A program made the translations under genes and the position numbers. From Amoebophrya sp. A120 (Eukaryota; Protista; Dinoflagellata): a stretch of 64,000 nucleotides of DNA. This document shows, piece by piece, positions 28,244 through 52,100 of this stretch (within the stretch, counting starts at the first letter, position 1; each line of letters begins with the position of its first letter). Under the pieces are notes generated by a model, which did not search any database, was not told the DNA's origin, and saw only the letters and a program-made list of their open reading frames with translations. The stretch covers positions 2,203,923-2,267,922 of the forward strand of contig CAJINV010000014.1 in assembly GCA_905178155.1 (NCBI GenBank). The letters run 5' to 3'.

Positions 28244-28508
28244 GAGGTGGGGCCAGAAGCGCGGTAAGCGAAGATGCAACACGTGGAACGCTGCTGCCGC
28301 CACTTTAGCTTTACGTTCTGCCTTCCTAACTAGTTAATGTAACTGAAGCAACCGATAGCTAGTTTCATATCTAACAATTTGCAATGCAAAGAAAAAGGTC
28401 CACCAGATGCAGCGGCTCCGGGCAAGTCGAAAAATATTCAACTTTAACCCAAAAAAAAATCAGTGATTTTTCGAGATGACCACAGTGAAACAGTTTTTTC
28501 CTTCGATA
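28244..28508 (-). repeat. Right terminal inverted repeat (~265 bp, imperfect)
   Basis: Reverse complement of the blocks in 15718-15982; the innermost block sits the same distance from the end on both sides. Confidence 0.92.
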
Positions 28509-31500
28509 AATGATGCCATTCGATTATTACCTCCTCTTGGCGACATCAGTTTTTGGTTTTGAATCAAAGAAATGCACGCAAAAATATTTCTGTGTGAGTT
28601 TTGAAATGCTGCTGACGTCGGCCACATATTGCAACGCAGTGCTCATTTTTGCACTAAAACTACACACACTCACCCTCATAAAGTACACGCCCTCGTCGAC
28701 GCACCACTGAGTTTATCTTGCTCCCTCCACTGACAGCGTCCTCAACCACGTACCTACTTCTAGTATTTCTTTAATCGGACATAGGTACGTCTATTCTCAA
28801 GTAAGTACCAACATGTTTGCAAGTTGAGTCTTCCTCTCTGGAACTACCGCTAGCGCGGCCACACCAAGGACGAGGACCATATCAAAACATCACGATGGTC
28901 ATCTAGACCACCTCCAGAGTGAAAAGTTATAATCGGCGCACAAACAAAGCAGGACCTGCACCACCAGCATAAGCCGCTCATTGCTTTTATTTTCCTCTCT
29001 GCGCTGGTGTTCTTCGCAGCGTCTGCTCCCGAGAAGCGAATGAGAAAGTGAAGAAGACGGGGCTGCTGGCATGATGTGCAGCAGCATGCACCTGCTTCTT
29101 GACGCGTTTGTCATGACTTTCTCTCGAAGAGATTGAGATTTTTAGTTCTTGCCAAGCTTCTTCAGGCTGGCGAGTCTAGTTACAGACCACAACCTACCTC
29201 CCGGAAATAACGCACAGCGGAAGAAGCAGAGGCATAAAATTCAGTTTGCTGATGTAGCACATCTATCATGACGATGGTCATGTAGTATCGCCGTCCCATT
29301 TGTTGCGGTCGGGGTCGCGTTCTCGTACCACATGCACATGATCTAAAAGAAAAACTTCAACAACTCGGTAGAGCATACAACGATCGGCGTCGAAGGTGGG
29401 TAGCAAAGTAGCCCTCACTTTCACAACAACTTCTACATGAAGACTAGGAAGACGCATCATATATTTTATTTTTCAAACGTTTTCACAAGCGCTGGAATAC
29501 GCACGGCACCCCAGACTCGTCTAGCGTTCTTTTGTTTAATATCTGAAAAAAGTCAGGAGAATCAGTAGAATAGATGCTATCACACACAGTCTGACATTGA
29601 CAACGCCCCCTTGTGCCCGTCTTTGTCGCCCAGAAAATTGATTAATGGATTTTTGCGCAAATCCAAGTCATTGTACCACGTCAAAGTAGTAAAAACAAAA
29701 ACTGCTGCTCCTGCGTGTGCGCGACTTGCATCGCTATTGGTGTAACTACACGAAGCAGAATAGGAAGACAAAACAAGATGGACGATGCATCTTCAACTTG
29801 TAAAACCCGTTTTGTAGAAGGTAGTCGCGCCATCGCTTGCCCAAAAGAAGCTGCTCTAGGGTGAAACTCAAGCCCAGGATGTCCTTGCCTTTTCTGTTGT
29901 CCGAGTGTTCAACCTATACGGCCAAATGAGAATTCGATTTGACATGAACACAAAACTACTACAAAAACAAATACTGTTTGTGTAATTTTTTGAAATTTCA
30001 GAAATGTCGTTGTTTCGTCGCTTACGTTTCCTTGCATGATGAAGCAGCGAGGTGGGCCACAAGTACAACAAGCAGCAGCTGCGAGTTGGAGTTGCTCAAG
30101 TTCAACGTTGCCCCTGATGGTGTTGCGGTTTGTTACTCCTGATCTTTAGGTGGAAAATGGTCAGCACAGCCGCAAGAAGGGATTTTTATTCTCCAAACCG
30201 CGGGTAAGTACGTATGATCAAACGAAACTGTGCCTGCCTCTGTACGAGCAAGAGCTTCTTTCTTTTCTCGATTCGGGCGGCTGTAATTTTATTTGTGTGT
30301 GTGTGTGTGTGTGTGTGGAAAATTGATGCTCTACTACACAGCTGCGCTACATTAACCGAAAAGACGCTTTCTAAAAGAAGCAGCCACTGCTATGTTGACT
30401 ACGAGGTCTTTGTGGTCGTGCAGCTTCTTTTTCACAATTGCAGCTCAAGAAGAATGCAGATCCGATATACGGATGCTGGTGTTGGAAGTAGTCAAATCAT
30501 TTGTGGTCGTGGTGCCGTGCGGCTCATCAATTATTTCGCGACTTCTAGGAGCATGCCGCTCAGTAGTGCAGTTCATCCCCGACCCCGTGGCATGCACACA
30601 GGTTGGCTCCCTCCAACCTCGTGGCAAACCGCCCATCATGTATTTTAAAAATACATGATGGACTGCATGAGCTTTGATGTTTCTATTAAAGATACGGAAA
30701 ATTAGAAACTTGCTCTTGTTGCCGCGCTGTCACGTCTAGATAAGTATCGAGAGAAACTGCTTGCGTGCCCGTACTTATTGTCATTTTCTTGATTAATGGT
30801 CTTCCAAAAAAAAGGAACGACGGTCTCCTTACAGATACAGTCCATCGGTTCTTTTTCTGATTTTGTTACTTAATCATAATCACCCCGGCAGCTGCGTGAG
30901 CCTGGTTCTGTCGTTTCGTTGGCCGACGAGTTCTGGCGCCTTCAAATATGAGGCAGAAGGGTAATAAACTAAAGCAAATGTGGAAAAGGAAAACGTAAAA
31001 TATCACAATGACAACTTTGATGAGATATTCGATCGATCACGATCGTCTCGCTATTTTACAAGAAAGAGGTACAACATAAACATGATGTGTCGTGAAGATG
31101 AGATGGATGAAGCAGTAAATAGCTTTTTTATGTCCCCTCGTCACTACGCTTCGATATTCATTTTAAACGAAGTTCTTGGTCACCCCATAGAAATATTAAG
31201 TGGTATCATCTATCATTCATCGTCGTATGAAACAAGAGTCAGTTGGTTCGGCGCCGGCACAGCAAGTTGTTCGAGTTGAGCTCCAGCGGAGTAATTTGAT
31301 GCTGTTGTTGGCGTGTTCCTCAGCGCGTCGACTGCAGGAAGAGGAAACATCGAACAAGAAGTATGCTACGACTGATAGTTCCCGGCTTGCGCTGGTGTGA
31401 TCCCGATGATCTTGGAGGTGGTGGTTGCGCCCGGAACTCGGTACGTCTGGTGGTGTTGTATTTTTCATATGAGTTGCAATTTGAATTTCTTCTTTTTTGC

Positions 31501-31558
31501 ACTGCGCTTCATATTGCGATTGCATTATTTGTGACCAGAAGAACTACATCAATGTTCG

Positions 31559-32074
31559 CTATCGGCATCGATATCCTTGCGAAATTAATACAAAAAACAA
31601 AATGAATACGTCTGCCGGCGGTTCCTCTGCGATTGCGTTCAGCCCGCCAAAGGGCGCCACCCCGTGTGCCGTTTTTTCCAACCTTATCAGTGCTTCCGCC
31701 CGACTGTAGACTACCGTGTCCTCCTGTGACTCCGACAACTCCTCTTGCTGGTGATGATGTTCCTGAGCAGACGAAGTGGGTAAAATTATGTCCTCCTGAC
31801 TGTTGTAGGGTATTGTCGGATCGTCGGCTGTGACGACCAACGAGGATGACGCGGCTGCGGAGGTAGACGCCGTCACGTCGCTCGTGGCCGTTGGTATGGA
31901 AAGCGGGTTGGCGGAAAAAATTGCGGTATTCTTACCCGTTGCCTGCTGATATTCTACTCCTGATGAGGAATTATTATTCTTTGCCGACGCATGGTGCGGC
32001 GCCGGGTCGTGTCCTTGTGCCGTTCCGTCTTCATCTCCTGCCAGGTCTATCCCTAATGTTCTCGGATCGAACAC
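31559..32074 (-). CDS. Low-complexity coding segment, possibly a downstream exon of the FLZ gene
   Basis: 171-aa S/T/A-rich ORF 200 bp below ORF 32274-33191 on the same strand. Confidence 0.45.
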   Translation of the reverse strand: MFDPRTLGIDLAGDEDGTAQGHDPAPHHASAKNNNSSSGVEYQQATGKNTAIFSANPLSIPTATSDVTASTSAAASSSLVVTADDPTIPYNSQEDIILPTSSAQEHHHQQEELSESQEDTVVYSRAEALIRLEKTAHGVAPFGGLNAIAEEPPADVFILFFVLISQGYRCR

Positions 32075-32273
32075 ATCTTCGGGATCGTAAGTCGCCGAGC
32101 TCGTGCCGCTCGTCGGACTTTTGATTGACTGCTTGTTCCTCTTGTTAGACGTGCTTTGTTGCTGTTATGCACCAGTACAAAATTTTTACAGTACACACAC
32201 AAAAACAAGCATCACAAATTTTCGCATATGGCGCCTTTTTAACGAAACATGGGAATTGAAGATGATATCGCTG

Positions 32274-34090
32274 TCATGTTCTTAAACTACAGCTACGCGG
32301 TCGACCGCGTAATTGATCTTGGCGGGGTAACGAAATGGTCGAAGCGGAAATAGCCGAACCCAAGCCGACATTTGAGATGTCCAAAAGATGAAGAACATTT
32401 GATTGTGTGCGTGCGAAAAATTTTTTAGCAATGGATAGCTGTCCTGTTGATGTCGGCGAGCTGCCTCCGGTACCGACGTTCGCGAAGTTGTTGCTGTTGC
32501 TCAAATTGCTGAGGACCTCGGAGGAAGAGGATTGCAACGGCAGCAGATTCTCCTCGCCAGAGACCACCGCGTTGGTTGGGGAGGGTCGCTGATGTATTGT
32601 TCTGCCGTCGTGCTGGTGCAGCTCTACCTTCGCACGACCACGTCCTTCGTCAACAGTGTCGTCTTCTGTTATCTCCATGCTGTTGCTATCTGCGAGCTCT
32701 ACTTGCTCTTGACCTGCTCTACTCTGTCCTGCTCCTGGCGATCTCTCTATTACTTCACCAGCTCGCCCGCCGTCTAGATTCCCGAACCCGTCCGGGCTGT
32801 TGGCGGGGTAGTTTCCGTTTTCGTCGACATTTTCGGGGTAGTAGGCGTCCAGGTTCGGAAAGTACTGGAAGAGAAAGTTAAACGAACTGTTCCGCGTATA
32901 CTCCTTCCCCCAGATCAGCCCGCTGCTGTAGGTCCGCAAAATCCGGTCCCCCGCCGGGTTTTCCTTCACGACGGGGATGAGCTTGTCCAGGATTTTCTGC
33001 CCCAGTTTCGCGACGAGACGGAAGGGAAGCTTCGTCGTGGTGTTGTTGCTGTCGTCCTCCGTGGTGTGGTGGCTGCTGTCGTGGGTGTCCGACCGGTCGC
33101 CGATACTGGATTCGGACCGAACACTGCTCATCGGCACGTGCTCCGTCTCCTTGGTCTGGGAGGGGGTTTGTTTTCGTAGTCTTTGCGTCACAACATCCGC
33201 TACGCACTCGTACTACACTGCGTTGTACGCGAAAATGACTTCTAAAAGCACGACCTGCATAAATATCGATGAGAAAACTGAAACTACACTAACACTATAC
33301 CTGCATCAGCCTGAGTTGGTGCCCCACGAGGTTTATCCTGTGCAAAAGTATCGTACTCGACTCGTATAATTGCAATCATGCAAAAATTCTTTTTTTTTAG
33401 GTAAATCCGCATTACAAATTTTATCTCTCATGCTGAGGAAATTTGTCATGCATTCATACGAGTACGATACTTGTGCAGTTCATAAGGTTCGTGTAGTGTG
33501 GACTGATCCCCTTCTTCCGGCATACCGTGCTGCAATAGGAACTGTCGTTGCGCTATGGAAGCCTCAGGTTTGAAGTCGACAAATAAGTTGAAAATGAAAT
33601 AATTTGTCATGCATAAAATGCAAGGCATGAAGTGCCTGTCTTGCCGGGATGGCAAGTGAGGTCGATTGTGAGCCTGTTTAGGGTTTGAAGTAGAGCTGCT
33701 AAAGCAGCATGACAAAAGCAGTCTTCTGTGCCTAAACAGCATGACAAACTGGATTCCGGTGCTCGGAAGATTTGTCATGCGCCACTTGATAAGTGGGCTT
33801 CCGACTGGCATGGGCAAGGGCATCCATTTCATGCATGGCAAACTATTTCAACTTTGACGATTTCGATCCTGACACATCCATATGCGCATGTAGATGGCGG
33901 CGGCTTCCGGGATCAGTTTCACGCAGTGGTTACACCGGAACAAGAAATCTACTTGCTGGTGTGGTCCTCCGGCGTTATTGGCATTCGTCGCGCCCAGACC
34001 CGTAGTAGCACCGGTGTCCGTCGCCGTGGTCGACGTCATCGTGGCTGTGGTCATGTTGCTGGCGGGGGCAACAGAGAAGTTGTGCAGCAT
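32274..34090 (-). CDS. FCS-like zinc finger (FLZ/DUF581) domain protein
   Basis: Removing two introners gives FLFRCNHCVKLIPEAAAIYMRNDSSYCSTVCRKKGISPHYTNLVGHQLRLMQ (CX2CX17-YCSX2C). A GT-AG intron starting at 33300 then leads in phase into YECVADVVTQRLRK (ORF 32274-33191). Confidence 0.8.
33334..33484 (+). mobile_element. Introner family 1 (151 bp), antisense to host gene relative to sister copies
   Basis: tatcctgtgcaaaagtatcgtactcg ... cgagtacgatacttgtgcagttcata; perfect DR AGGTT; homologous to 40118-40254 and 47847-47999. Confidence 0.92.
33554..33882 (+). mobile_element. Introner family 2 (329 bp)
   Basis: tatggaagcctcag ... ctgacacatccata; perfect DR TGCGC; splits the FLZ finger; homologous in inverted orientation to 39738-40044. 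Confidence 0.92.
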
Positions 34091-34789
34091 CAAGATCTTG
34101 GTACTAAATGTTGAGCCCTCGTGGTGGACCACGTGCACGTTACTTAAGCAGTTGAAAATGAAGATGCTCTTCACAGCCGCGTGCCTCCGAGTTCGCTTCT
34201 ATTGATTTTTTTTCTCCTGCTCCCCGAGAATGATCCCCAAGAAGCGCTGCAGCAGATGCAAGAAGCTCAGCTTGTGGAAAAAAAGGCTGCTGGAGATGAA
34301 TGGACTCTACTGAAGACCGGTGGTGCAGCGTGTATTTCTTTTCAGCCAAGAACCACTGCTGACGATGAAGCCGTCGTGCTGTCGAGGAAAACGCAGAAGA
34401 AGAACAGCAGGGGACGGCGGAGGTATAACGTGTTGAGTAGATTGAGCGTCTGCAGCAACTGTGCTGAGGATGTCAATGGCTCCTGCTGTACTCAAAAAAA
34501 GTACATAGTTGTTCACACACACACTCCTGCTCCTCTCCGATTTACAACTTTGAAAACACCTAAAGTTGAATTGGAGAGTGAAATATAAATACTTCACAAG
34601 AGGAATAATCCTCGTCAAAGTTGTTCGACTTCGAAGAGGCACATAGGAAGGTCTTGGGCATGGGCGTTTCCACGCAGTACAAATAAACAAGGTAATACTA
34701 ATAATTGAGGAACTTCTTGTGTTCCATATAAATCTCTACCATGACTAGATATAAGTCAGAAAACCCATTATTTAATAGTATCCCGCAAT

Positions 34790-34981
34790 AGAAACAAAGA
34801 ATAGAAACGAAAAACAAAAACAAAGAACGGAAACGAAAAACAAAAACAAAGAACGAAAACGAAAAACGAAAACAAAGAATGGAAACGAAAAACGAAAACA
34901 AAGAATAGAAACGAAAAACGAAAACAAAGAATGAAAACAAAAAAGGAAAACAAAGAATAGAAACGAAAAACAACAACAACG
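34790..34981. repeat. A-rich degenerate tandem repeat (aaacaaagaatagaaacgaaa-type)
   Basis: Read directly. Confidence 0.85.
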
Positions 34982-35013
34982 ACATGCAGACAAAGTGCCC
35001 AAGCTTCTAAGCG

Positions 35014-35404
35014 GCGAAGCCTCGAAACGCCGGAGGAAGCAGCGAAGCCTCGAAGCAGCGAAGCTTCGAAGCAGCGCAGCCGCGAAGCAGCGCAGCCCCG
35101 AAGCCTCGAAGCAGCGAAGCCTCGAAGCAGCGACGCCTCGAAGCAGCGAAGCAAGCCACGAAGCCTCGAGGCAGCGAAGCCTCGAAGCAAGCCGCGAAGC
35201 CTCGAAGCAGCGAAGCCTCGAAGCAGCGAAGCTTCGAAGCAGCGAAGCCTCGAAGCAGCGAAACCTCGAAGCCTCGAAGCAGCGAAGCCTCGAAGCAGCG
35301 AAGCCTCAAAGCAGCGAAGCCTCGAAGCAGCGAAGCCTCGAAACAGCGAAGCCTCGAAGCAGCGAAACCTCGAAGCAGCGAAGCCTCGAAGCAGCGAAGC
35401 CTCA
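35014..35404. repeat. 8/16-bp minisatellite (cgaagcct / cgaagcag)
   Basis: Read directly. Confidence 0.95.
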
Positions 35405-36560
35405 GGTTTGTCGCTGCGCCGGACCGGAGCGACAAGTCCAGGAGTCCCCGGACCCGTCATTTTGTCGTTGCGCCGGACCGGAGCGACACAACCAGGGGTC
35501 CCCGGACCCGTCATTTTGTCGTTGCGCCGGACCGGAGCGACACAACCAGGGGTCCCCGGACCCGTCATTTTGTCGTTGCGCCGGACCGGAGCGACACAAC
35601 CAGGGGTCCCCGGACCCGTCATTTTGTCGTTGCGCCGGACCGGAGCGACACAACCAGGGGTCCCCGGACCCGTCATTTTGTCGTTGCGCCGGACCGGAAC
35701 GACAAATCCAGGGGTCCCCGGACCCGCCATTTTGTCGTTGCGCCGGACCGGAGCGACAAATCCAGGGGTCCCCGGACCCGTCATTTTGTCGTTGCGCCGG
35801 ACCGGAGCGACAAATCCAGGGGTCCCCGGACCCGCCATTTTGTCGTTGCGCCGGACCGGAGCGACAAATCCAGGGGTCCCCGGACCCGCCATTTTGTCGT
35901 TGCGCCGGACCGGAGCGACAAAATCAGGGGTCCCCGGACCCGCCATTTTGTCGTTGCGCCGGTCATTTTGTCGTTGCGCCGGACCGGAGCGACAAATCCA
36001 GGGGTCCCCGGACCCGTCATTTTGTCGTTGCGCCGGACCGGAGCAACAAATCCAGAGGTCCCCGGACCCGCCATTTTGTCGTTGCGCCGGACCGGAGCGA
36101 CAAATCCAGGGGTCCCCGGACCCGTCATTTTGTCGTTGCGCCGGGGCGGAGCGACAAAATCAGGAGTCCCCGGACCCGTCATTTTGTCGTTGCGCCGGAC
36201 CGGGGCGACAAAATCAGGAGTCCCCAGACCCGTCATTTTGTCGTTGCGCCGGACCGGAGCGACAAAATCAGGAGCCCCCGGACCCGCCAATTTGTCGCTG
36301 CGCCGGACCGGAGCGACAAAATCGAGGGTCCCCGGACCCGCCAATTTGTCGCTGCGCCGGACCGGAACGACAAATCCCGGGGTCCCCGGACCCGCGAATT
36401 TGTCGCTGCGCCGGACCGGAGCGACAAATCCCGGGGTCCCCGGACCCGCGAATTTGTCGCTGCGCCGGACCGGAACGACCAATTCGGGGGTCCCCGGACC
36501 CGCGAATTTGTCGCTGCGCCGGACCGAAGCGACAAATTCAGGGGTCCCCAGACCCGCGAA
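35405..36560. repeat. 54-bp minisatellite, ~21 copies with graded divergence
   Basis: Unit approximately tttgtcgttgcgccggaccggagcgacaaatccaggggtccccggacccgtcat; 18-aa periodicity in the ORF track. Confidence 0.95.
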
Positions 36561-36561
36561 G

Positions 36562-36657
36562 TCCGGTGCCGGACCATGGCCGCCGAGCCGGTGCCGGACC
36601 ATCGCCGCCAAGCCGGTGCCGGACCATGGCCGCCAAGCCGGTGCCGGACCATGGCCG
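36562..36657. repeat. ~23-bp GC-rich tandem repeat (gccggtgccggaccatggccgcca-type), ~4 copies
   Basis: Read directly. Confidence 0.85.
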
Positions 36658-38690
36658 GGCCCGCCGCCCGGCGCCAGAACGCGGCCCCGCCGGTGCCAGC
36701 ACGCAAGATGGCGGCAAAGGCCAACCTGCCAGCCGCGCCGGTGCCGGATCGTGGCCAAGCCAGTCTGGCGCTTTCAAAATCGCAGGCGGATGGGCCTGCC
36801 TGTGCTGAAGCGCCGGAACCGATTTTCCACAGATGGACGCTGAGTCTGTGCTACTATTCATCTAGCGGAATACTATTAAGTCTGCAGGTTACTGGACACG
36901 GGAAGCGGGATAAGGCTAGTTATTGCTACTGCTAGTGCTATATCTTTAAAAAACTCCTCAGGCGCCTGCCGAGTCGACCTAGTGCTAGTAATATCAAACG
37001 ACCACGTCCGTGCGTGCCTATTCAGACTATGCACCACGCAGGGACCGGCGAGGTCCGGGAGCAGCCCGAAAGAACGGCATGTAGGCATGTACATTTACAG
37101 GTGAGTGAAAATGGCAGCTGCACCTGCAGTACAGTTCAAGAACATCAACCGCATAGATATGATGCACTTGAGAAAATCTTGGTAATGGGCCCCCGGGTAG
37201 GACGCGAGATAGTATCAGTGGTAAGACATGCTGACGAAAAGGAAATAAAAACAAAACAGGTATATAAATATTGTAGCGCAATCCAGAGCTTGCAAATGAG
37301 TTAGAGTTAGTATTAAAGTCAATCGATTGAAAAAAAAAAAAACGAAGAAAAAGCTACAAGACCTTCTTGGGTGAGCAGGTGGGGGGAGTAGTGCAGCAAA
37401 CGGGTAGGCGAAAGGGGATGAAGAGGAAGAGGTAGAGATTTACGCTAGATGTGGATACGGCACTTCGAAGGGGGCGTGCAATTGATTTCCAATAGTTAGG
37501 GCTAGGGGGGGCACCTGCGCATGCGTTGAGTTGTCCTTGTCTTCGTCTGAGATGAGGTTGCGTCTACTTGACCACCAGCTGTGATCGTAAGCGTGTGAAG
37601 CTCCACCTCCCAACAGTGTCAGTGGTGAATCAGAACCACGTAGAAGTTCATCATCATTGCGGAGATGGTGGGCGACTGCTCCTTAGTTACCTCACAAAAA
37701 CACTCACGCTTTCGCTTGTTTCCCACAAACAAAATATTTTCTCTCGCCTTTAAGTCTTGCGTAACTACACTCAGGTAACTCCACAGTTGCAAATGCTTTT
37801 GTGCCCTCCGAGGGCATCTGTACTCGAATTCATCGATAAAATAAAATCATCACGACAACAGCGACCGTGCAAGGAAAATTCCTCGTCGTGGTTTAAGAGT
37901 AAAAGATCAACAGGCTCAGGTTCTCACCAGCGACTTTTCCTTTTGTTTCATTTGTAGTTTCGCTCATCTCGCTGCTCACTTTGGGATCATGATTAGTGTA
38001 CTGCTCTCGTCGCTGCAGATGCAGTCTGCTCTCGTGATTGCTCATACATATTTTGGTCGAGTTCAAGACTTGGAACACCTTGCTTTCTAGTTTCATTATT
38101 ACCTTAACCTTTATCATCCCTCAGACGAGAAGGAGAAACAACAAAAAGTAGAGTGGTGCTAACGTGTCATTATTTCCGCTTACAGGGATAGCAACGAGCT
38201 GCTCTTGGCTAACATGTCCGAAATTATCTGCCTACATCTCGATTCAAGCGACATCATACAGGAAACTTTTTTTCGGAATGGATAGTGATTACAGCATTGC
38301 ACATTATTATAGATGGTCGCGCAATAAGAATCATATTAATTTACAATGTTTAATTTCTCAAAAGCCCATGGCTGGCTTGCTACAATCATAGACTCCAACA
38401 TTCTGAGTAAGAGAGAGAGTCAAGAATCTACAACAAATTAATTTGCTTTTGCATCGAATGCGACAGCGAGGATAATAGCTAGAAAACTCTCGTTTGCACT
38501 GCAACATTCTTAATCTGGGATTTTCTTTTTTTTTTGTACAGAAATCAATTTCACAAAAGTAAGTAGTGTACGTGCGTCAGCGAGATAGAGCCTCTACTAC
38601 AACTTCAATACAAGTAAAATCGGTACAACTGTGCTGCGAGATAGTGATAAGGTACTGCTTCGTTCCAACAACATCTTCCTCGTGCTCGCT

Positions 38691-41403
38691 TTATGGATCG
38701 ATCCCAAACCCGCCTTGACTTTCGTCGACCGCGGCTCCTTCGTGGTCCGAGCTGGGCGCCTCTTCATCTGACATCACCGCGCCCTGCTGTTGCTGCACCG
38801 TGATGGCACTGCTTCCGTGGTTCACCGAGCTGGAGCTCGCAGACGTGCGAGCCGCCGCCGATGCACTGTTTCTGCTCCCACCCGTGGATCGTCCCGAAGT
38901 AGAACTAGTACTTCCATTCGAGCCGCGGCTGCAGTAACCGGCAAAAACCGCATAGACGCCCATCAGTGCGAGGACCACGAGAAACACGAACAGTCCGATG
39001 GTCGCGGCGCCGGTGTCCAGGGTGAATTTGCTCGCGGTTTCGTCTCCTCCGGCTATGGTGGTACTGGTTCCCGCGTCGCCGTTCGCCAACTCCTCTCCGG
39101 CTTGGATTGGCTTCATCTGTTCTTGCTTTTTCTTCTCCACTTCGTACACTTCCTTTGCTTCGTATGCAATGCAACATCACTTCTGCACGGCAGAGAGGAC
39201 ACGTAAGTACAAAATAATGCATCGCAGAGACGAGAATAGTCTCGTCGTTGTCATGCAGAGACTGTTCCATTTTGATCTTTGGTACCTGGTGTACGTCTCC
39301 TCCAGCGCAGGATTTTTTTCACTGTGGATACCTCATTCAGCTGTTTCAAAGTGCACTTTTCCGGCTTGTTTTCCTGGTCTGCGGAGAGGTTAAGAACCCC
39401 ATCGGCAAACTCGGAGACACTCGGGTCGTCGGCCGCAACGATGCTGTTTTATTTGGTGAAGATGTGTGACTGCTTATATATACGCTTTTCTTGTTTTTTT
39501 TTCCCGGAATTTATTTGCTCCTGGTAGTAGAACTACACGACCATAGCATAATCGAGAAAATCTGGTTCTGGCATCTATCTTCCAGTAGCAACGAACAATG
39601 AAGTACTCTTCAACTACATCAAAAAACCAACATCGATACAGACTGAAGCCATCGGAGTCCCAGAATTTCTTGGTGAGACACTTCTGTCCCGAGGCCAGCA
39701 TGGCCCAGCCGACGCCGTTTTTGACCTTGACGCGGTCTATGGAAGTGTCAGAAACGAAATATGGCAAAATCGAAAAATTTGCGATGCACAAAATCGAATC
39801 CAGTTAGAGCCTCAGTCTCCAAGCGCCGCATGACAAATTTCGAGAGCACCCAGATCCAGTCTGTCATGCTGTTTGGGCAAAGAAGACTGCTCCTGTCGTG
39901 TTACTCTGGCAGCGCATTGCATTGCCCTAAACAGGCTTGCGATCGGTCTCATTTGCCTGCTCCCCAATACAGGCCCTACGTTCCCTACATTTTACGCAAC
40001 ACAAGTTTTTCGATTTTGTCGATTTAGGTTCTGACGCTTCCATACGGTCCGTGTTCACCGTGTCCGCCTCCACCTGCTGCTGCTCCCCGAGCGGCACCGG
40101 GCCGGGACCGCTTCCCGTATGAATTGCGAAAATATCGTGGCACTCGTATAAATGCATTACAAATTTTCTCAGCATAAGAAATGAAATTTGTGATGCGGAT
40201 TTACCTTGAGTAATGCATGATTGCTATACGAGCGCGATACTTTTGCACGGGATATCCCGCCCGGGCCGGCAGCTGCTGTTTCAGTGGCGGCGCCGTGTTC
40301 ACCACCGGCTTCGGCATCACCACCCCCGCGTTCGCGACTGCCTGCGCCTTCGGAACCGGCGTCGTGGTTTCCGGTTTCGGGGGCGTGGGGGTCATCTTGC
40401 CGACGGGCGCAGGTGGCAGACGAACCGCGGTGGGCGGAGGCCCGGCGGCGACCGCAGCGGTAACCCGCTCTTTTTGTTGCAGAAACGCGGTTCCGGTCTC
40501 GTCCGTAGAAGAAGTCGTCTCCACGACCGGTCTTGGCGCAATAGAGCGAGATGAAGTTCTTGTCCTCGAAGGTTGTTCTTTCGCGCTTTCTGCACTAGCG
40601 TCTTTGTTGTCAAACCCGAAGCCGATTTGGATCTTTTCCGCAAGCTGGATCAAGGTCGAGGCCAGCGAAGAATTGTTGTTTTCGGTGTCCTCGTCAAAGC
40701 CGGTCTGCAAAAACGCGGAAAACGCGTTTCGCTCGCCCACCCGGTTTCCCTCCACCTGCTCGTCCCCTGCCGAAAATGTGCCGTCGTTGTTTCGTCCCCC
40801 AGCTCCTGCTCCCGTATTAAAAGAAGCGCTTGTAGTACCACTTCCCGGTGGTCCATTTGCGGAGAGAAATAGCGCTGAGGAAGAGGAGGCTGCTTTGATG
40901 TCACTTTCGTGCTGCAGCCCGCTGCCCGAAGAACTCAAGCTGCGGGCCGAGGATGCGCCTTCAGTGGTGCCGCCTGCGCCGTTCGTTGTTTCAAAGGCCT
41001 GCCGCTCCGCAGCGAGTTCTTCGAAGTGCTGGCCACCGCCATTGGCGTTCGAAGAACCGGAGGACTCGAGGGAGGTTCTGTGGTTCGTTGATTGTGGCGG
41101 CGTCCGCTTCAACATCGCGAGAAACAAAACAAAGACAAAAACATTTTTTGGACGTGCATAACAAACTTGACTAGTCGCGGCCAAAGGTAGTTCCGCTACA
41201 GCTAGTCTTACAAACAACAAACAAAAACACAACGATGAACATCGTCGTCTGTCCCGTGCTCCGCTGCAAGAGCATCCATTTCCATTAGTACCTGCTGTGT
41301 CGATTGGTTTTCCCGCGAAACCTCGGGTAAGCAAACGCCTGCTGCAGCAGCTGGTGTTGTAGTCCCGGAGCAAAGCCACCAGTGCTCGCCGCGAACGCGG
41401 CAA
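38691..41403 (-). CDS. Probable single-pass membrane protein, multi-exon
   Basis: Introner removal joins PARAG|SGPGPV and NTDR|VKVKNG. P/T/S-rich stalk; C-terminal hydrophobic helix IGLFVFLVVLALMGVYAVFAGY. Start codon and junctions in 39150-39640 uncertain. Confidence 0.7.
39738..40044 (-). mobile_element. Introner family 2 (307 bp)
   Basis: tatggaagtgtcagaa ... ttctgacgcttccata; perfect DR CGGTC; removal restores the frame. Confidence 0.92.
40118..40254 (-). mobile_element. Introner family 1 (137 bp)
   Basis: tatgaattgcgaaaatatcg ... cgatacttttgcacgggata; perfect DR TCCCG; removal restores the frame. Confidence 0.92.
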
Positions 41404-43604
41404 AAAGTGCTGATTTCGTGCTGGTCCTCGTGCGGGGCATCATCTTGTACTTTCCGCTCCTACTTACGGTAACGGCTGGTGTTACTCTACGGAGAGTGGA
41501 TTTTGATGAAGCAGTAGCACATTGGTAAAAAGACATCTTCATCTTCTGCCTGGATGTAGTACCCCTTGCAGTTCTGCTTCGTCGTCGGTCCAGCAGTTGA
41601 GCAGGAGGAGAAGCAGGCGTGGACGAGGAACTCGATGTTGTTGTAGTTTTTGTCTCTAAGATCTTGCACACCGGCAAGGCGCCTTGAAACGATGGTGGTA
41701 AAACCTCCGAGCAAGGTGAAGCTGACATTTTGATATGCCTCTCAACACCACGCAGCTATTTGATGTTCCTGAAACTTCGACACTGGTGACTTGTTCGAAG
41801 ACGGAAGACCACAATCTCGTCAGAGTCCGCGGGCGCGGCGTACTTGGAAAATATTATATCTTTTTTTCACTTACTAGCACAAGAACCTCTTCCTTCACTA
41901 CACCTGCTCCTGCGGTGTCTAGTGCTGTGTGGTACGTTAAGGTTACGTTGAGATCAAGATGGAACAAAGCCTCTGCTGGATGCAAGAACTACTGATCGAG
42001 CTGCTGGACTTCGAGCAACAAGCTCCAGTCAACACGGCCAACATACAGACAGAGTAAAGATCGATTCGATGTCTCATCAATCTCAATCTCTCTGGTTTCG
42101 GGTCTTCTCTCTACGAAAAAGGAAACGACAAGACTACACCTTGGCTGTAGAACCAAGACCCTTGCGATCTTCACGAGAAACGGACATATTCCCGGCGACG
42201 ATTTAGATTTTTCAGAGCGTACGACTTGGACTTCAGACGATGCACAACAATTGTTCAGAATTGTTCAGGAGTCTAGGCACCATTGATAATATCACGGAAA
42301 AAACCGAATCTGTACGTAGAGAATTGATGTCTTCTTAAATGCAGGAGGCGCGGGGTCAGCCAGCCAGCACCGCACGCTAGGAACAAACGCGAGATGATAG
42401 CCGCGCTCATGTTCATCTCGTCCAGCAAAAATTGCGCAGCTTGCTTTCAACAGCGCAAGCATTTCTAGATGGTTTTTTTGAGGGGGATGAATGACATACT
42501 TCCGTAAAAAGGGGCTTTCTACTCAGAGCCTCTGAGGTCCGCGACCAAAGAGGTGTCAAGAAGACAGGAGAGTCATTCGCCCTCTGTTTCGATAGATTTT
42601 TCTTCTTTTCGCAAACATAAGTAGAAAAAAGGTTTTTGGAGCTGCTGCTTTCCATTTCGCTTTCCACTTGCACCAATGGACTGACATGATAAATGAAGTA
42701 GGGTCTGTGTCAATATGTGAATAAAATGTAGTAAACTACCTACCAGGTTCAGCCGCACTTGCTCGATGTTCGACGCAGATAAACTAGAAGTTTGCGTTAA
42801 CGCGGACTTGTCACTAGTTTATGCCAGTGAAAATGTGCAGATCTATGTGATGGTCGCTGACAAAGAGAATCATAGCTGTCGCATCCATGTTGAAAATATT
42901 GAGGTAGGTACTTACTAGTCGCAAAATTTCATGAAAGTGAAGCTGACATGGATTGTACAAGGGCTACTAAATTTTCATCACGAATAACACAATACCACAA
43001 CGAACTATGGTGAATATATGCTCAAACTGCGGGGTTTGTCGCGACATATCCTGAAGAATCAATGTCAATGGGGCGGGCCTAGCAAAAACGAAGTTCGTGA
43101 GCTCGATGCACTTCTTTGCGAAAAAAAGATGCTGTCAATATGGTAAAAAGAGAAGCCTCCGGTGTTCCTGGTTGCAGCCGTTTTTGCAGATGTTCTTGAA
43201 GCGTTGTTTTCAAATGAAGCCATTCGTTGTTGTTGTTCATCACGAATAAAAATGAGAAGAATACGACTAGCGTGCGTTGAGCTCGTTTAGAACGATCTCC
43301 CACGCAGCATAGACCGATTGACATACTTGTTAGAAGTAAGCAGAAGCACGAAAATGATCATGGCACTGAAAGACGAGACATGGAAGTGTATTATAGTTAA
43401 TGAGGAGGTTTTTGTTTTTTAGGGTCATCAATTATACAAGCGCCGGCGGTTTGCTCCATCTTTCTCGCCGTTCCAAAATCGTCTGCGAAACTGTTCGCAA
43501 GATTAGTGAAAGACTCCGGGATGTTGAAGTGTCTCAGCCGCGCGTCGTTTAGCTTATGTTGATGAAAAAAACGTCAAAGCTTCCGAAGCCGAAGAGTTGT
43601 TCTT

Positions 43605-44768
43605 TTACAAATCAGCGTCAGCCGGCGCGGCTTCGGCTTCCGGAGCGGCAGCTTCGGGAGCGGCAGCCTCCGCCTCGGCCTCGCCTTCGGCCGGCGCGGC
43701 GGCGTCCTCGGAGACAACCTCCGGAACGCCGGACTCCAGCTCCTCGGAGACGGTAGCCTCGTCCTCCTCATCCATGGCGGCGGCGGCCTCGTCGTCCATC
43801 TCCGCCAGCGGGTCTTCCTCGGGCATCTCGCCTTCCTCGCCGCCCATCTCGCCCTGGAGCTGCGACATCATGTCCGCCGGAAAAACTTCCTGGAAGATCT
43901 CGGTCAGAGTCTCCGGGGGAAGAGTGGCAAGAACCTTGTCCAGCTTCTCCTCGGCACCCTCAACCTGCTCGCCGGCCAACTGTATAAGTAGGAATTCATT
44001 CAGTATAACGAAAGTAGAAGATGAGCTTGACCAGTAGAGTGGCTATAATTTCCATGCAGCCATGCAGCTGGTGGGGAACTACTTCGCTCTCCGTCAATTA
44101 TTAGTTTTTTACCTTAGTAGAAAAGCCTGAAATCTATATACCAGTCTCTTCAGGAGATCCTTGATTTCGGTGAGTTCTTCGGCAGAGGGCGGTGCTGGCT
44201 CGCTATCCATGTCATCCAGTTCCTCATCCTCGGACTTCTCTACTGCGGCCTTGGGTTCCTCCTCCTTTTCCTGAGTAGTTGCGGCAGCTTCAGCCTGTTC
44301 CTCAGAAGTAGCGACTTCAGCCTGTTCAGCATCCTGAGGGGTGGTTGTCGTGGTTTCGGTCGATGTTTCGGCCGCCACAGCCTCCTTCAACTCCGCATCA
44401 ACCTCAGTGCGCAGGGCCGCGTCGACGTCTGGTGTTTTTTTGGCATGCGAAATTGCATCGGTAGATCATGCTTTCTGTAGCCATGCGATCCTGCAGTGCG
44501 AGTGCTGCTCCTCTTTATCTTGCAAGACATCAAAAGCAAAAGCAGGAAAATAAGTTTTCTGAATAATCAACTCAACTACAATTTGTTGCAACAACATGCT
44601 GGTCGTGCGCAACGCAGCATATTAACAGCTGATTTCATCTGTGATGAAGAGAGAAGCAGCATTATTATAGTACTTACCCGTGGCGGCAGGAGTGCTGATC
44701 TCAGCCCGGACGAAAGTGGCGAGGACAGCGGCGGAAGCGCCGACAGCAAACTTGGAGAAGGCAACCAT
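43605..44768 (-). CDS. Secreted highly acidic Ala/Glu-rich protein, about 3 exons
   Basis: Signal peptide MVAFSKFAVGASAAVLATFVRA, then a gtaag donor; exons at ~44140-44435 and 43605-43981; GC-ending codon bias in the last exon. Confidence 0.75.
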
Positions 44769-46135
44769 TTTGTTTGGTGTTGGGTTTTTAGAGATGAAAA
44801 TACGATGAAATCGAGTCGTTGAACAAACTTGTTGAAAAGGTTCTTGGATAAATCCAGGCTTCAAATCACGGAGCAAAAACTACTTTGAAGAACAGAAGGC
44901 TGTCGTTAGTATTTTCGTTTGGTTTTATTCGGTTCGTTGGTCAAAACAAGTTAGTATCGCGGTGTAAATGGGTTTAATTTCAAAGAACGATCAAGTCGTG
45001 TGTGCGATTCGTTAACAAGTTGTGGACAGGTTGTCGTCAAAAGTAGAGTGGCTGGTCATTTACGATAATTTTAATTTGTTCCTATGATCATGATCGTTCT
45101 ACAATAATTTTCTCGTACGTGGCAGTGCAGGATCGGTGTATGCGAGAGTAAGGATTTTTCAGTCGTGGAACAGAACCTTCTTCTTCTTCTCTTCGCGTTT
45201 CCATTTTCACAACCCTCTCTTACTTTACTATCACGAGCAGCCGACAGCAGGTGCGCCACTAATTGTTGACGTGGTCTCACCGAGAAATATAATTTTAATT
45301 GCAATTCTTCTACTAACCGAGGTTTATCCTCTTCGACTTCATGCATGCACGTGACCGACAGTAATCTACTTTTGGAAAAGCCGAGACAGCAATTACTATC
45401 ACAGTAGAACTGGTACAACCGACAAGTTAGCAACACTTCTTGCACCGACGATACTCGGTCATACGTTCGGTCCCCGAGGAGCTGAAAACAATTGTTGCAC
45501 CCTACTGGTATGATCAAGAACTTCACGATTTTTTCGTAATACACATCATCAGAAGACACGACAGTAGAGACGAGACACAGGGCGAGACCACGTGTTGAGT
45601 TGCTGTTTTAGACTGGTGCTGGACCACGATAGAAGTGGGACTCTGCAACAATAATTAGGATTTTTGCTTTCTTTAAATTAGTGGTTCGTCCACTATGTTT
45701 AAACCTTGCAGTTTCAAGTGCAGCTTGAACATTCTTGTCACACGGTTTACACCAGTAAAATCCCATCTATAATGTTGTAGAAGAGAGCTCGCTTCACATG
45801 AAAATATCCATACACGATCGGAAAAAAGAACATACAAGAACTCTCAGAAGTGTAGTACTTACATGGCTCTACTTACAAATCAACCACTCAGCCACAGGTC
45901 GCGAAGAACGATCAACTTCAAGAAGATGAAAAAAAAACGCGGCAACCAGACGAGTGCAAGGACACACAAATCTTTAACAGCGCATCCTCTCCTGTATGTA
46001 GGTGGAGGGAGGACGAAGAGCTGTGTTGAGCATGATCCTCTTGTATTTTAATCCAGAACATCAAACCTGCTGAAGAAAAGAAACGCCAGCCTCAGGTGCG
46101 GCTTGATTCCAAAGCGACGCGTCTCGAAGAAGACT

Positions 46136-49100
46136 TTATCGTTTTTTTCTTCTCCCGGGCGGTTTCCACTCCTCATCACCACTGTCGCTATCGTCCTCGC
46201 TTCCGCTGACAATCCAGCTGAGCGTTCTTTTCTTCTTTTTCTTCTTAGGGTTGGTTACTCCACCTGCGGCCTTACCAGCCAGCGCTTTGGGTTTCTTCTG
46301 ACCGCCTCCGAGTGGAGCTGCTGCTCCTACCTTCGATACTTTCGGTTTCGCGGTACTAGCTGCTGTTGCGCCGCCAGCAGCAGGCGAATCTTCTTCTTTT
46401 CCCGCCTTGTTCTGCCCGCCCTTCTTACCTTTCCCCTTTGCGAGCAGTGCCTGCTCTTTCAGCATCTTGGACTTCAACACGCTGGCCTTTTGGTTGCTGG
46501 TGAAGTTCGGAAATAGAATCTTGATTGCCGCATTGTAGTCCTTTTCCGCCTCGGTCACAGCCTGTATCCCGACCTTGTTCAGCTTCTCATCCAGGCGAAA
46601 GTACCGCTTCTTCAGCTTTTTGATGTACCTCTTCGGCATGGTAAACTGGTTCGCGCACCGCACACAGGTCCGGTTGAAACACTCCTGCAGCACCTGGAGG
46701 GCGGCGAGGGGAAGGTTCTTAAGCGGTTTTTCTTTTTGTTCCATTTTCTCTCTACTGCTGCAGCTTCCCGATCTGCTCGCAGCCTGAAGATGTTCATCTC
46801 TGGAAGAAGTTCTCGATGCTGCAGTTGATGCACGGGACGACGATGCAGATAAACGCGAGGAACCCGCCGAGGACACGGTATACTCGTGAAAGTGCAAGCG
46901 AAAGTGCTCGGAAATTTGAAAAAACGTCATCTCCGGGTTCAGGTCGAGGAGTTGATGCATTTTCAGCTGGACCGCAGACCGGTCTAGTGGTGGATCTGGT
47001 TGAAGATTTATTGGCTGAAGAGTCTGTGCCTGCGCAGCTCCCCCCTCGTCCATCATTTTTTCCTCCTTCTGCTGCACAATCCTCGCGCGCTCCAAGTCGT
47101 GGTGCTGCAGGCTGTGGTTGAGCTGTTGAAGCGGAAGCGGTAGGGGTCGAGTTCTCTCCGTTTCTAGGGGTTTCATAGACGCGGTTCTTGTGAAGGTGAT
47201 CTCATCTTCATCGTCTTTGATCGGAAGCACCGTTGCTTCGCCATCCGCACTAACTGCAATGCGCGGCGGGGGACGTCGACCTCCGGGGGTAGGCTTCTGT
47301 CGAAGACCAGAGATGGTTGTGCCAGAAAGCTCCGCCTTCCTCTTAGCCTCTTTTTGCAACGTGACACAATCCCGGCCCTGGAACAGCGTCGGTGTGCGCA
47401 GACGACATCCCGGCTCGTTTAAAACTGTGTAGTACCGCATGTGCTCGCACTGGTCTTTCAGTTTGTGCATCGGCGTATGCAACACAAATCTACATCTACC
47501 GCAGCACAACTCATTGAAAATACGTCTTCAGAAATTTTGACTACAACCTTCAGAGCCGGAGACAAAAATTGTTGTCCTACTAGGAGAATAGCAAAATTTT
47601 TGTCATGCTTGACTCTGGGACAGCGACAGTGTGAAAAAGACTCCGTTTCTCCTTCTACGTCGTGCTCGTGTTTTACGGTAAATCCATAATGAATTCTCTC
47701 TGCATACGGAAACGGAGATACATGTTTTGACGGTTTGGGCAACACAGCCAGCTTTTCCCGACTCGCCGCCGCGTCGTCGTCGACCAAAGTCTTTTGCCCG
47801 GGCCGATCGGAGGTTGTGACAATGTGCGCGGGGTCGACACAGGTTTTATGCATTACAAAAGTATTGTATCGTACTCGTATAAATGCATTACGTATTTCCT
47901 CAACAGCATGAGAGAGAAAATTTGTAATGCTGATTTACCTCAAGAAAAAGATTTGTAATGCATGTTTGCAATACGAGTACGATACTTTTGCACAGGATAG
48001 GTTTTCAATAACTGCAAATCCTCCACCCCCAAAATCCCCACAAAGCTGTGCGGGTCGAAGGAGTAGCGGCCGTGGCAAATACCCCGGTACTCCGGGCGGT
48101 GGTAAATATGCAGAAATTTGGGCAGCTTCTTCCGCGAAGGCAGCTGCCGCCGCCGCCCGAACCCCCGGCCTCGGCGAGCGACCGTCTTTTTGCCGTTTAT
48201 TTTCCTACTGTAATCGATGAACACCGTGCCGTTGAGTTGCGCCATACGACTGAGGAACGAGGGCCGGAGAAAACCTTGGTAGATGTGCCGGTTGCTCGCG
48301 TCGTACCAGTATTTGTTGGGCTCCTCCTGGAGAACGTGCGTAGTTGCGTCGGGCGGACGCGCAGGTACAACTTGTACAGCAGAAGACGAGGCGGAGCTGC
48401 AGCTGCGTTTTGATGTCAACGTGGCTTGGTTCTTTTGGCGAACCCCGAGGACCACCGGAGGTTTATTGTGCCGCGCACTTGAGGAAGACGATGTTGATAC
48501 GAAACCGACGAATTTTTGCCCCGTGGTCCGGGCCCGGGGCCTTTTCAGCGAAGTAGAAGTACTTATTGAGGCACCTCCAGAGGGCATCAATCCAGAGGGC
48601 GGAAGTTGTCCTGCATATTGCGGAACAAGCACTGGTGGGGCCTGGAGCTGCTGTTGCGGCTGGATGAACTGGCGGCCAGAAAAAGCCGCTTGCGGCTCTA
48701 ATCCTCTTCCTGGTCTTGCAGTTGCACCTCCAGGTGGTGATCCTACTATGGGAGGCACGGCTGATTGCATTCCAGATACAGGAGCTTCAGCCGGCGGTCG
48801 TTGTACGGCACTGTAGTAGTTCGCAATCAGTCCCTGTTCGTAGTCCACCTTGCCACAGCTGACGCAGGTCTGCAACTTTTTCACCACCTGGTGCGGAGGT
48901 GGCGCCAGCGAAACATGGTGACCACCTGCTGCTGCTGCAGCCTCCGGACAAGTCAAATCAACACCGTTCCTCGCGGCTTTGCTTTCGCGCAAGGCGGCAA
49001 ACGCAGCGGAATACAGCTGTTTTTTCTTCAAAAATGGTTCACACGTAAAGGAAAGCTTGTTTGTTTTCACAAACCTCGCCAGCCCGGCTTTCCAGCGGCA

Positions 49101-52100
49101 CTCCCTGCAGAGCCGCGGCAAAAAGGCCCGGCCCAGCCCGGGGAGAAGCCGCGCTCCCGCAGCGTGTACCGGGGGGCAGTTGACTCCGGGGATGTTGAGG
49201 GTGGTCGTGTTGTCGAGCGTGCAAGACCGGGAAATTCTCCAATCATCCAAAGTTCTCAGGGAAAATGGTGGTCGCAAGAGTTGTGTCGTGTGCACTTCTG
49301 TACCTGGTTCCTTGTTATGATCCTCAAGAACCTCTCTCGCACTCCACAGTGCGGTCGACGACGGTTTTCGCAGATTACCGGAGGAAGATCTTGCTGAGGC
49401 AGCGGCCGCTCTGCTTGATGAAATTGAAGAAGAAGCTGGCTTCTTCGACGACGAATCATGAACAACATCCTGATCACCCTCCTCGTCAACGTCCTCAATA
49501 AGCTCAATTTGCGCCGTCCTCGGCCCATTGTTTTTACTCACAAGGGCCTTGTCGTTGCCGTTCTCAGCAGCTTCTAAAAACGACGACCCTGTACTCCTCG
49601 ACGTCATCCCGAGCTCTGGTGCGAAAGCGGCCTTGCAAAATTCCCTTATTAGAGCATGTTGGGCTTCGGCTTGTTGTGCGTCCAGATTGTCAAGAAGAGA
49701 ATCACAATCTTTATTCTGTTCATCGTCATCAGGCCGCGAAGTAGCAGATGCAGTGGACAACACGTCCTCCAATTGCAGCCCCCAGTCTTGCGGCGTTTTC
49801 CGCAGAATGCTGCTGCAGAAATCCTTAGCAAGCTCTAGTTCGCGTTGCTCTTCCAACCGCATCTTGGCATCTTCAGCATCTTGCTCCATATGTCGACGTG
49901 TAGTTTGTTGTACTACTATACTCAAACTTCCCGTACTGCCGGGCAGCAGAGCAGATGATGATGCTGGTGGTGAGCCTCTGCTGAGCCCTTCTCCTCGATG
50001 AGGTGTTTTCTGGCCTCTGCTTCCCCTCGCGGCGGCCTCCTTGAGCTGCATCAGCTGAGAAGCAGGCATGTTCTTCTTATCTGCGCGCTGGGGCGGCTCA
50101 AACTTCAAGCTCTTGCTGCTGCTAGTGCTCTTGCTCGAGGAGGGGCTGGGTTGCAAAGGCAAAGCTGAGGATGATGACGAGGAATTATTTTTCAGGATGC
50201 CTTTCAGTGGAGGTGGACGTGAGGCTGTGCTAGATGAAGTAGCCGTTTCTGATGTGTTCACTATTCCAAGTGAATCTTCAAACTTCGAAATGGACGACGA
50301 CGAGGAGGAAAAGCTGCTGCCGGGAAAACTATTCGAAGAAACTACTGTCGCTGTTGTTTCACCTTCTGAGAAACGTGAAACTGGAACTGGATGCGACGAA
50401 CTTGAAGAAGGAGCCGCTGAGACTAATTTTTCCGCCGCTGGCTGTATTGCAAGATGAGGTGCAGGAGCACGAAGACCACGACTTTGACCTGTATCCAGTT
50501 CTTCCGTAGTTGCATTCTGTTTCAGCAACACCGGCCCGCCCACATGAGGCAAGCACGTATTTTCCACATCTCCAAGGTCCCCGACCACCGAAAACGTCGC
50601 TGGTGCAGCTGCATCGGCGAACTTCACCGAGGGTCGGTCGGTTTTCTCTTGCAGCACGACCTGCTCGTCCTCTGCACCTGCAAACGGCGGCGGACAGGAC
50701 AGCAAAGATGATGAGCGAGAAGCTCCTGCACCCGAAGGACCGGCTGAGGTCAATACGGGCGATGACGAGGAACTAGAGGGTGCGAAGATTGCTGTTTCCT
50801 TCACAGCAACATCTGACATCTCCTCGTCCTCTTCCGTGACAGTCGGGAGCTGCGGGCGGTGCTTTTTCTTGTTCATGATCCTTGAAGATACGGACCGAGA
50901 GGTAGAGGATGCGGATCCGCTGCTTACAACTGACGCAGTGGAAGATGAAGAGAGCGCGTTACTGGCTTTTGCTGTCCCGTGGTCGGGCACCAGCTGCCCC
51001 CGTCTAGAAGCAGCAGCAGCAGCAGCAGCAGTCCCTGGTCTTGTATTTCCTGCGGACGCGACGGCGGCGAATGAAGGCACTTTGTTCGTCCCAACGGATT
51101 GCGCAGGGTTGTTTGCGGCGCCGGCCATCTGCCTTCGGGGCGAAGCAGTGCAACTGGATCTTGTCGAAGATTGTCCCTCTCGTTGTGCATATGCTTTCTC
51201 GTCCCCAATAATTTCAATTCCCATTTCCAGCGCAAGTTTTCTGTCCAGCTCTTCCTGAGTCCACCAAATCCCCTGAAACGGTCCGTCCTCCCGGTACGCC
51301 ATCTCCCGCACCTGTTCTTCTTTTTCCTTGTCCAAAAAGGCTTGCTGCAGGTCGTCTAATCGGCTGAAATTTTCCTCAACCCGGTCGAAATATCTCGCGT
51401 CAAACGCTTGCTGTCGCGGCTTGTCGGGGAGCGGCTTCACGGCGTGCTTGGAGGACAAGGGTTTTGTCTTTGTGTTCTCATTTTTGTTCTTTCTCCTAGT
51501 GTTCATCCTCGTCCTGCTTTCCGCACTACTGCTTCTGCCATGGGACGACCCGGCAGACGCGCTTCTTGAAGCTCCTGCTTTCGCGGTTGCTTTTGCCTTA
51601 GGCTTCGTGGTTTCCTTTCTGGTCCGCGTCCTACTAGCGGATGCGGAACTGCTGGCCTCAAGGTCTACACCTTCGTCCGCGTCTTCATCCGTTTCCATTT
51701 CCACGTCCAATAGATCTTTTCGTACCTTCATGGTTGTGTTCTGCCGCACCTTCAAGTCTTTCACAATCCACTCCCGCACGGACGCAGGCCAGTGAACCGG
51801 TACGTTCCTGTATCGTGGCTTTATTTTTGTAGAACCGTAGAAATGGTCGTCAGGATCGCTGGTCTCCGAGCAGGCACCATTTCTCTCTTCGGGACGACAA
51901 TGCTCTTTTGCAAGTTGTGTAGAAGGTGACGGTGAGGACCATGCATCCAGCCCTGCAGCTGCTGAGTTCTTGCCGTCTTCGTTTATTTTCATGTCAATGT
52001 CGTGGCTTGTTTCTGTTTGTCCGTCATCACGACCCCCCGCGACACTCTCTCTTTCCTCTTCCTCAACTCCGAGAACCTCCATCATTTTACGAAGCTCCTG

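Follow-up and report, generated by a model that had tools for sequence, protein, structure and literature searches.

The window analysed here, a 64,000-nucleotide stretch of the Amoebophrya sp. A120 genome (assembly GCA_905178155.1, contig CAJINV010000014.1, positions 2,203,923 to 2,267,922 of the forward strand), carries two families of introners, repeated intron-forming elements, whose copies lie in both orientations within minus-strand genes. For both families, and for either orientation, a copy is removed from RNA exactly as the element plus five bases (element+5), and the presence of two-way introners in the window is confirmed.

Introner copies in the window and their loss from RNA

Family 1 is represented by F1a (33334-33484, 151 bp, plus strand, antisense to the family reference, target duplication AGGTT), F1b (40118-40254, 137 bp, minus strand, duplication TCCCG) and F1c (47847-47999, 153 bp, minus strand, duplication GGTTT). 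Family 2 comprises F2a (33554-33882, 329 bp, plus strand, duplication TGCGC), which interrupts a zf-FLZ-like domain, and F2b (39738-40044, 307 bp, minus strand, duplication CGGTC). All five copies start with TAT, end with ATA and are flanked by a perfect 5-bp target duplication (5/5); their ends form inverted repeats of the 8-20-nt class, with 14-17 of 20 tip bases matching. A scan of the window for TAT..ATA elements with a 5-bp duplication returned six elements, against zero to three in each of ten shuffled sequences. The orientation of the copies was determined by aligning their interiors, with 30 nt removed at each end, on the same and on the opposite strand. F1a aligned with F1b and F1c only in the opposite sense (same/opposite scores of -36/45 and -36/64), F1b and F1c aligned in the same sense (55/-8), and F2a was opposite to F2b (-90/104). 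Because these interior-only alignments give the same result, the opposite orientation is not due to the inverted ends. The original prediction that the same families are used in both orientations is thus borne out by the trimmed alignments of the copies and by the TAT..ATA boundaries of all five.

The window elements are the published A120-type introners (Farhat et al. 2021, PMC7789003), with which they share TAT inverted repeats, 3-5-nt direct repeats, non-canonical ends, repeated families and RNA support. The GC content of the window (51.8%) is in line with A120. The A120-type tip, consisting of TAT, seven variable bases and at least three A, is present in family 1 and most other families; in family 2 the TAT is present and the A run is absent at the expected place. 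Non-canonical introns in A120 were already reported in PMC7789003, according to which they exceed 60% of all introns, their splice positions are variable or unknown, and no transposase was found. In the accessible text of that paper the word "orientation" refers to genes, and no count of element orientation is given.

The RNA evidence consists of contigs of the complementary DNA (cDNA) assemblies X1 and X4, which are two samples of one study, and sequencing run X12 served as the DNA control for positions 38400-53700. Contigs of both X1 and X4 skip 33329-33484 (F1a) and 33549-33882 (F2a), and contigs of X1 skip 39733-40044 (F2b) and 40113-40254 (F1b), in each case exactly element+5. The F1a and F2a joints sit in a single long contig per run, at depths of 57.9 (X1) and 173.8 (X4). 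Two further elements without strand assignment are likewise absent from the RNA contigs as element+5: a decayed element at 39163-39330, whose tips are alike at 10/20 positions and whose duplication is alike at 3/5, with no predicted end pairing, and an element at 32166-32437, whose tips are unpaired at positions 1-13 and whose duplication, GCTGT, is perfect. None of the RNA joints within 38400-53700 is present in the DNA of X12, which reads through the 39163 element.

The same RNA contigs skip CT..AC introns, which upholds the claim that the host genes are on the minus strand. F1a and F2a lie in the transcript of an FLZ-like gene (29113-34735, minus strand) with canonical introns at 31447-31609 and 33156-33300; the zf-FLZ assignment is of low confidence (E 0.14, model positions 4-31 of 54), and the match ends at F2a. 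A silent or unspliced FLZ gene, which would have spoken against the original prediction, is contradicted by the X1 and X4 contigs that skip both elements. That prediction also held that all five copies restore the reading frame; exact removal is seen in RNA for F1a, F2a, F1b and F2b, while for F1c, whose joint is not among the 15 of the 29 joints listed, removal restores the frame in silico only.

Orientation and reading frame at further loci

An exact 20-mer scan of one assembly found at least 134 further loci, with 137 matches, 133 of them with a second end and 132 unique. Among these 132 unique elements (matches listed), 101 have perfect duplications and 26 have duplications alike at 4/5 positions. 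The strand of the host was called with a codon-phase model trained on 14 open reading frames (ORFs) of the window, whose held-out accuracy at the threshold used was 17/18, 40/43 and 69/70 for flanks of 75, 150 and 300 nt. A wider scan of the listed loci gave 189 elements (none in two shuffles), 128 with a strand call and 61 without. The count of sense and antisense insertions per family that had been proposed shows both orientations in six families at the listed loci. There, the two orientations relative to the host stand at 63:29 in family 1 and at 5:5, 3:2, 2:1, 1:1, 2:0 and 1:0 in the other clusters; family 2 stands at 2:1 in three full copies among six loci, or 3:2 with the window copies included. 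A comparison independent of the codon-phase model, using pairs of family 1 copies at one locus, found seven in the same and seven in opposite orientation. The apparent bias of family 1 is not trusted, because it follows the presence of the search word: copies with the word at the left end stand at 61:23 and the other copies at 2:6 (p 0.011). At four loci (L013, L036, L039 and L079), family copies of 230-500 bp carry a second insertion inside.

Removal of element+5 keeps the reading frame in 92/92 elements with both flanks coding, out of 127 strand-called elements with full flanks. The element lengths themselves are even modulo 3 (58, 62 and 69 of 189), and every one of the 128 strand-called elements is interrupted by a stop in one or more frames, 93 of them in all three. 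Signals specific to one strand were sought inside the elements: only 3/149 alignment columns of family 1 differ by orientation at p<0.05, the transcribed strand has no folding-energy advantage (p 0.47), and there is no excess pairing at tip positions 4-7.

Junction bases, cut register and the removal reaction

The original prediction took the two orientations to imply an unusual splicing mechanism. The elements are indeed spliced both ways, with non-canonical ends and with no strand-specific signal; orientation alone, however, does not imply such a mechanism, because inverted-repeat ends show the same sequence at the 5' and 3' side either way. The better evidence is that the junctions need no GT or AG in any register. 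GT-AG is possible in some register in 9/127 elements, neither GT nor AG occurs in any register in 29/127, and none of the six RNA-confirmed elements has GT and AG in one register. In addition, the composition of the duplication equals the exon background (p 0.02, 0.56, 0.44, 0.52 and 0.24 by position, uncorrected); the duplication carries no required base, and removal is indifferent to whether its two copies match. The window elements thus lack the GT/GC-AG ends of U2 spliceosomal introns, and the possibility that each strand bears its own ordinary splice signals is largely ruled out.

Three places bear on the position of the cuts. The RNA joint 39157->39331, across the 39163 element, allows one base of slide and keeps the upstream repeat, which leaves two positions for the 5' cut, -1 or 0 relative to TAT. 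In a hybrid intron of 2178 nt (34736-36913, minus strand), the 5' end is T-TAT of an element tip and the 3' end is a canonical AG that has CTGAC upstream of it, so that the splice runs from one tip to an AG located 43 nt beyond the other. The evidence is a single X4 contig whose match breaks off at 34735 and whose unaligned end is identical to 36914-36943 (30/30); the intron start is in the -1 register, with no slide possible. Within the intron, the decayed element at 34779-36912 holds tandem arrays of 13, 8 and 54 nt. Three TAT..ATA elements (20173-20297, 24373-24592 and 24712-24842) are nested in gene B, a gene of the 12.8-kb element described below. For the second of these, whose repeats are alike at 1/5 positions, seven homologous proteins fit best when element+5 is removed and 3-4 upstream bases are kept (score 267), with poorer fits when 5 upstream bases are kept (238) or element+2 is removed (231). 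For the third, +5 (265) is preferred over +2 (253). The element at 20173 is uninformative on the register, and mismatched repeats in the listed loci did not resolve it. Accordingly, a 5' cut one base before TAT and a 3' cut four bases past ATA is shown in three places, by one contig or homologue fit each. With strand calls made at the loose threshold, tip positions 1-2 vary more at the 3' end than at the 5' end (8 vs 1, p 0.039).

The claim that recognition passes through the hairpin of the terminal inverted repeats is weakened, because two elements without predicted tip pairing, 39163-39330 and 32166-32437, are nevertheless removed exactly as element+5; judging from these folding predictions, the hairpin does not seem to be required. 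Counts of G-U against A-C pairs on the transcribed strand show no excess outside family 1 (20 vs 27), and those of family 1 (45 vs 20) are confounded by uneven sampling. An Rfam search gave no match. The motif GCATGACAAA has 16 sites in the window against 0.21 expected, on both strands (e.g. 21097, 21774, 33442 and 47599); within elements the sites are spaced by 31-35 nt, and in family 1 they point inward from both ends. The motif was rejected as a branch point, because in family 1 its sites fall in the 5' half. It is also found in some apparently canonical introns.

The explanation that we consider best, with a probability of roughly 55%, is that the mirror-image tips serve as linear marks for a relaxed U2-type spliceosome, which needs neither GT-AG nor a hairpin. 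The elements are copies of miniature inverted-repeat transposons that are missing from RNA contigs to the base in either orientation, and since the tips are reverse complements, the same polar signals would be met whichever way a copy lies. Of the five canonical donors in the window that RNA confirms, four are GTAT, and N-TAT may stand in for this donor with any base at its first position; the acceptor may be set by its distance from the T-run/ATA end, and the stem would be helpful but optional. That tips and canonical sites appear interchangeable would point to one spliceosome serving both. On DNA, the copies may spread by a hAT-like transposase such as that of gene B. Removal of non-canonical introns derived from miniature inverted-repeat transposable elements by an adapted U2 spliceosome has been described in Fritillaria (PMC11282704). 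The introns of Fritillaria borealis share a transposon origin and non-GT/AG ends with the window elements, and A-rich 3' ends with the canonical introns of the window (PMC11282704, PMC13326754), but AG-AC or AG-AT ends predominate among them and one target is preferred, whereas the window elements have free junction bases. The A120 repertoire comprises U2, U4, U5 and U6 together with 83/89 spliceosomal proteins, with no U1 detected (PMC7789003).

Several points weigh against a relaxed U2-type spliceosome. Every datum on the register rests on a single contig or a single alignment, and the asymmetry between 5' and 3' tips is not significant at stricter thresholds (1 vs 6, p 0.125; 1 vs 5, p 0.22). 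The 39163 element is GT..AA in the -1 register, and this canonical GT may compensate for its absent stem. In most copies the two ends do pair into a strong stem, with pair probabilities of 0.86-0.97 for family 1 (tip positions 8-20) and folding z of -3.9 to -8.2 for four copies. No consistent branch-point motif was found near the 3' tip, and neither a lariat, a branch point nor pairing with small nuclear RNA was seen in the RNA data, which are assembled cDNA contigs only.

Those stems, equally strong on both strands, together with the lack of any sequence need at either junction and the U1 not found in PMC7789003, would suit a protein endonuclease and ligase, tRNA-intron-like or euglenid-like, that cuts at a fixed distance from the base of the end-to-end stem with no spliceosome. 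Euglenid nonconventional introns resemble the window elements in their paired ends, absence of GT/AG and junction repeats (PMC11170887, PMC11282704); they differ in having another end motif and in being released as circles, whereas in the window two elements do without pairing and tips are also used together with canonical sites. These two RNA-confirmed elements without predicted tip pairing, the tip joined to a canonical AG past the other tip and the missing G-U excess outside family 1 make such an enzyme unlikely. The enrichment, two-strand distribution, regular spacing and inward direction of GCATGACAAA could instead indicate that a protein binds the tips or this internal motif, in DNA or in nascent RNA, and so tags the element and brings in the splicing machinery; with sites on both strands, orientation would be immaterial. 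Some elements lack the motif, however, no conservation depends on orientation, and subterminal repeats are expected as transposase sites in any case; as the sole explanation a bound protein is improbable, although it can also be a component of the relaxed-spliceosome reading.

Three other explanations deserve far less weight. Removal of the elements from DNA in the transcribing stage, or RNA transcribed from empty alleles, is very improbable: TA-bounded inverted ends resemble those of ciliate internal eliminated sequences, and the joint of the 12.8-kb element, on one low-depth contig, could come from an empty allele, but the X12 DNA reads through the 39163 element and shows no joints, and the elements would be lost from a cell that has no separate germ line. 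That the joints are falsitrons, template-switch artefacts of reverse transcriptase at hairpins with direct repeats in unspliced genes, we regard as extremely improbable. The anatomy fits, all RNA data are cDNA and falsitrons are documented (PMC8240250); however, all 128 strand-called elements hold stops, yet the flanking frames are open and continuous, there are joints with one base of microhomology or none, and the spliced path is a single long contig in each run. Equally little credence is given to ordinary GT/AG sites with a branch point on each strand, for which the target repeat would be the source. TAG is a possible end of both family 2 copies and GTATGG a possible start of F2b, and there is a known precedent: the introner classes of Polarella glacialis insert either way, with biases, as in Aureococcus (Roy et al., bioRxiv 2020.10.14.339549), and the two-way introners of Aureococcus anophagefferens from Huff 2016 are recounted there and in PMC10228655. 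The elements of both organisms share inverted repeats, target duplications and an often biased use in either orientation with those of the window, but their GH and AG sites are carried or recruited from the element or duplication, whereas the window elements need neither, as the junction counts above make clear. Two-way use of introners is therefore not new in kind.

The genome paper (PMC7789003) left two questions open: by what means Amoebophrya excises its non-canonical introns, tens of thousands in number, and what mobilises them. The fixed register replaces "variable splice sites" by one testable rule, and natural controls are in hand in the form of inverted copies, stemless copies and hybrid introns. 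We offer as a tentative proposal, rather less probable than the general reading, that a U1-less spliceosome measures from the tips (N-TAT at the 5' side, ATA+4 at the 3' side) and relies on no conserved base at the junctions, that all elements with such tips, of 110 bp to 12.8 kb and in either orientation, are scarless introns, and that the 12.8-kb hAT-like element is both an intron and the engine of spreading. If true, a spliceosome without need for a +1 G or an AG would extend the limits of splice-site chemistry, and transposon ends that bring about their own removal would spare coding sequence any damage from insertions.

The 12.8-kb element and its transposase candidate

A candidate autonomous element of 12,791 bp, without strand assignment, occupies positions 15718-28508. 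It has TAT..ATA tips with 29 identical nucleotides, inverted repeats of about 200 bp and the duplication AATGA (15713-17 and 28509-13), and it sits ahead of the first ATG of a minus-strand ORF of 1238 codons. In a single X1 contig of 568 nt (depth 5.56), 28509-28569 is fused to 15683-15712, as expected when element+5 is removed; the joint reflects either a spliced intron or an empty allele. A 216-bp element in locus L118 (positions 30-245) and a match in L056 have 26/28 tip bases in common with it. The element contains three genes, whose GC content at third codon positions is higher than that of the host genes: gene A (16650-19079, plus strand), which is basic, of low complexity and multi-exon, and for which no function was found; gene B (20070-25641, plus strand), which is multi-exon; and gene C (26524-27915, minus strand), for which a homologue search gave no match.

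Gene B is probably a hAT-like transposase. It has seven homologues (E 1e-34 to 1e-11), all of them proteins of Amoebophrya A25 or AT5 and collinear over the exons, and the alignment keeps the motifs DxS, DQE, HHRxxN, xRW/TRW and SDxE in the order of hAT transposases; these we take to be the D-D-E-like, H-cluster and TRW motifs. Among the atlas features of P0001, hAT families account for 9/10 best hits, at 0.76-0.84, which is below the 0.9 line and serves as a lead only. A model of a homologue (mean predicted local distance difference test score, pLDDT, 45.8) places Hermes (PDB 8edg) in a tie for first of 48,161 chains (Z 7.2, root-mean-square deviation 3.4, 151 aligned), a level often reached by unrelated models. 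Searches with gene B gave no Pfam match at a useful level, no homologue in the word index, none in viral contigs, no sequence match in PDB and no Foldseek match at E<=0.001; a single-exon fold had a pLDDT of 39.7. Families of hAT5 with 5-bp duplications exist (PMC12730594), and the 12.8-kb element resembles hAT5 and Hermes in its 5-bp duplication, inverted ends and the ordered motifs of gene B. On the other hand, it has no Pfam or sequence match, its length is 12.8 kb, it carries two extra genes and it is absent from one RNA contig. The third terminal base of hAT ends is G (PMC1131882) and here it is T, which is why the element is called hAT-like and not filed as hAT. Gene B is less likely to be the mover of families 1 and 2 than to be a transposase, because their tips differ after TAT. 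The tips of family 2 (33554 and 39738), TATGG..CCATA, fit the TAYGG..CCRTA ends of IS3EU transposons, which have a 6-bp duplication (PMC12730594), and this points to a second possible mover.

The transposase candidate contradicts the statement in PMC7789003 that rules out transposase-mediated spread in A120. Compared with that paper, the present analysis adds both orientations in six families, the fixed element+5 register, hybrid introns (a tip with a canonical AG or GT) and the transposase candidate; the last three are absent from the literature searched and are new here. The search, with most subscription journals outside its reach, found no text on orientation or register for Amoebophrya elements. 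Of two papers by Gozashti, that of 2022 allowed opposite-orientation matches, and that of 2025 required the expected orientation and assigned the A120 introners to several transposon classes.

Elsewhere in the window, a further TAT..ATA element with a duplication alike at 4/5 positions lies at 1969-2293, and two shorter palindromes are found at 2181-2237 and 16504-16607. The canonical introns at 31447-31609, 33156-33300, 39444-39639 and 44429-44677 have A/C-rich 3' tracts that are not polypyrimidine, and their donors are mostly GTAT. In the raw RNA runs, depth was found in 4/30 (X15), 6/30 (X16) and 1/30 (X17) bins, and in 4/30 bins of metatranscriptome X5; the sole highly covered gene in the raw RNA runs is that at 42472-44795, for which X15 lacks two upstream exons that are present in X16. 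Finally, an inverted repeat of 640 bp (53828-54467), with 130-nt arms that are 91% alike, lies between two long ORFs and has no TAT..ATA tips; its inner parts are also found in loci L007, L052 and L077.

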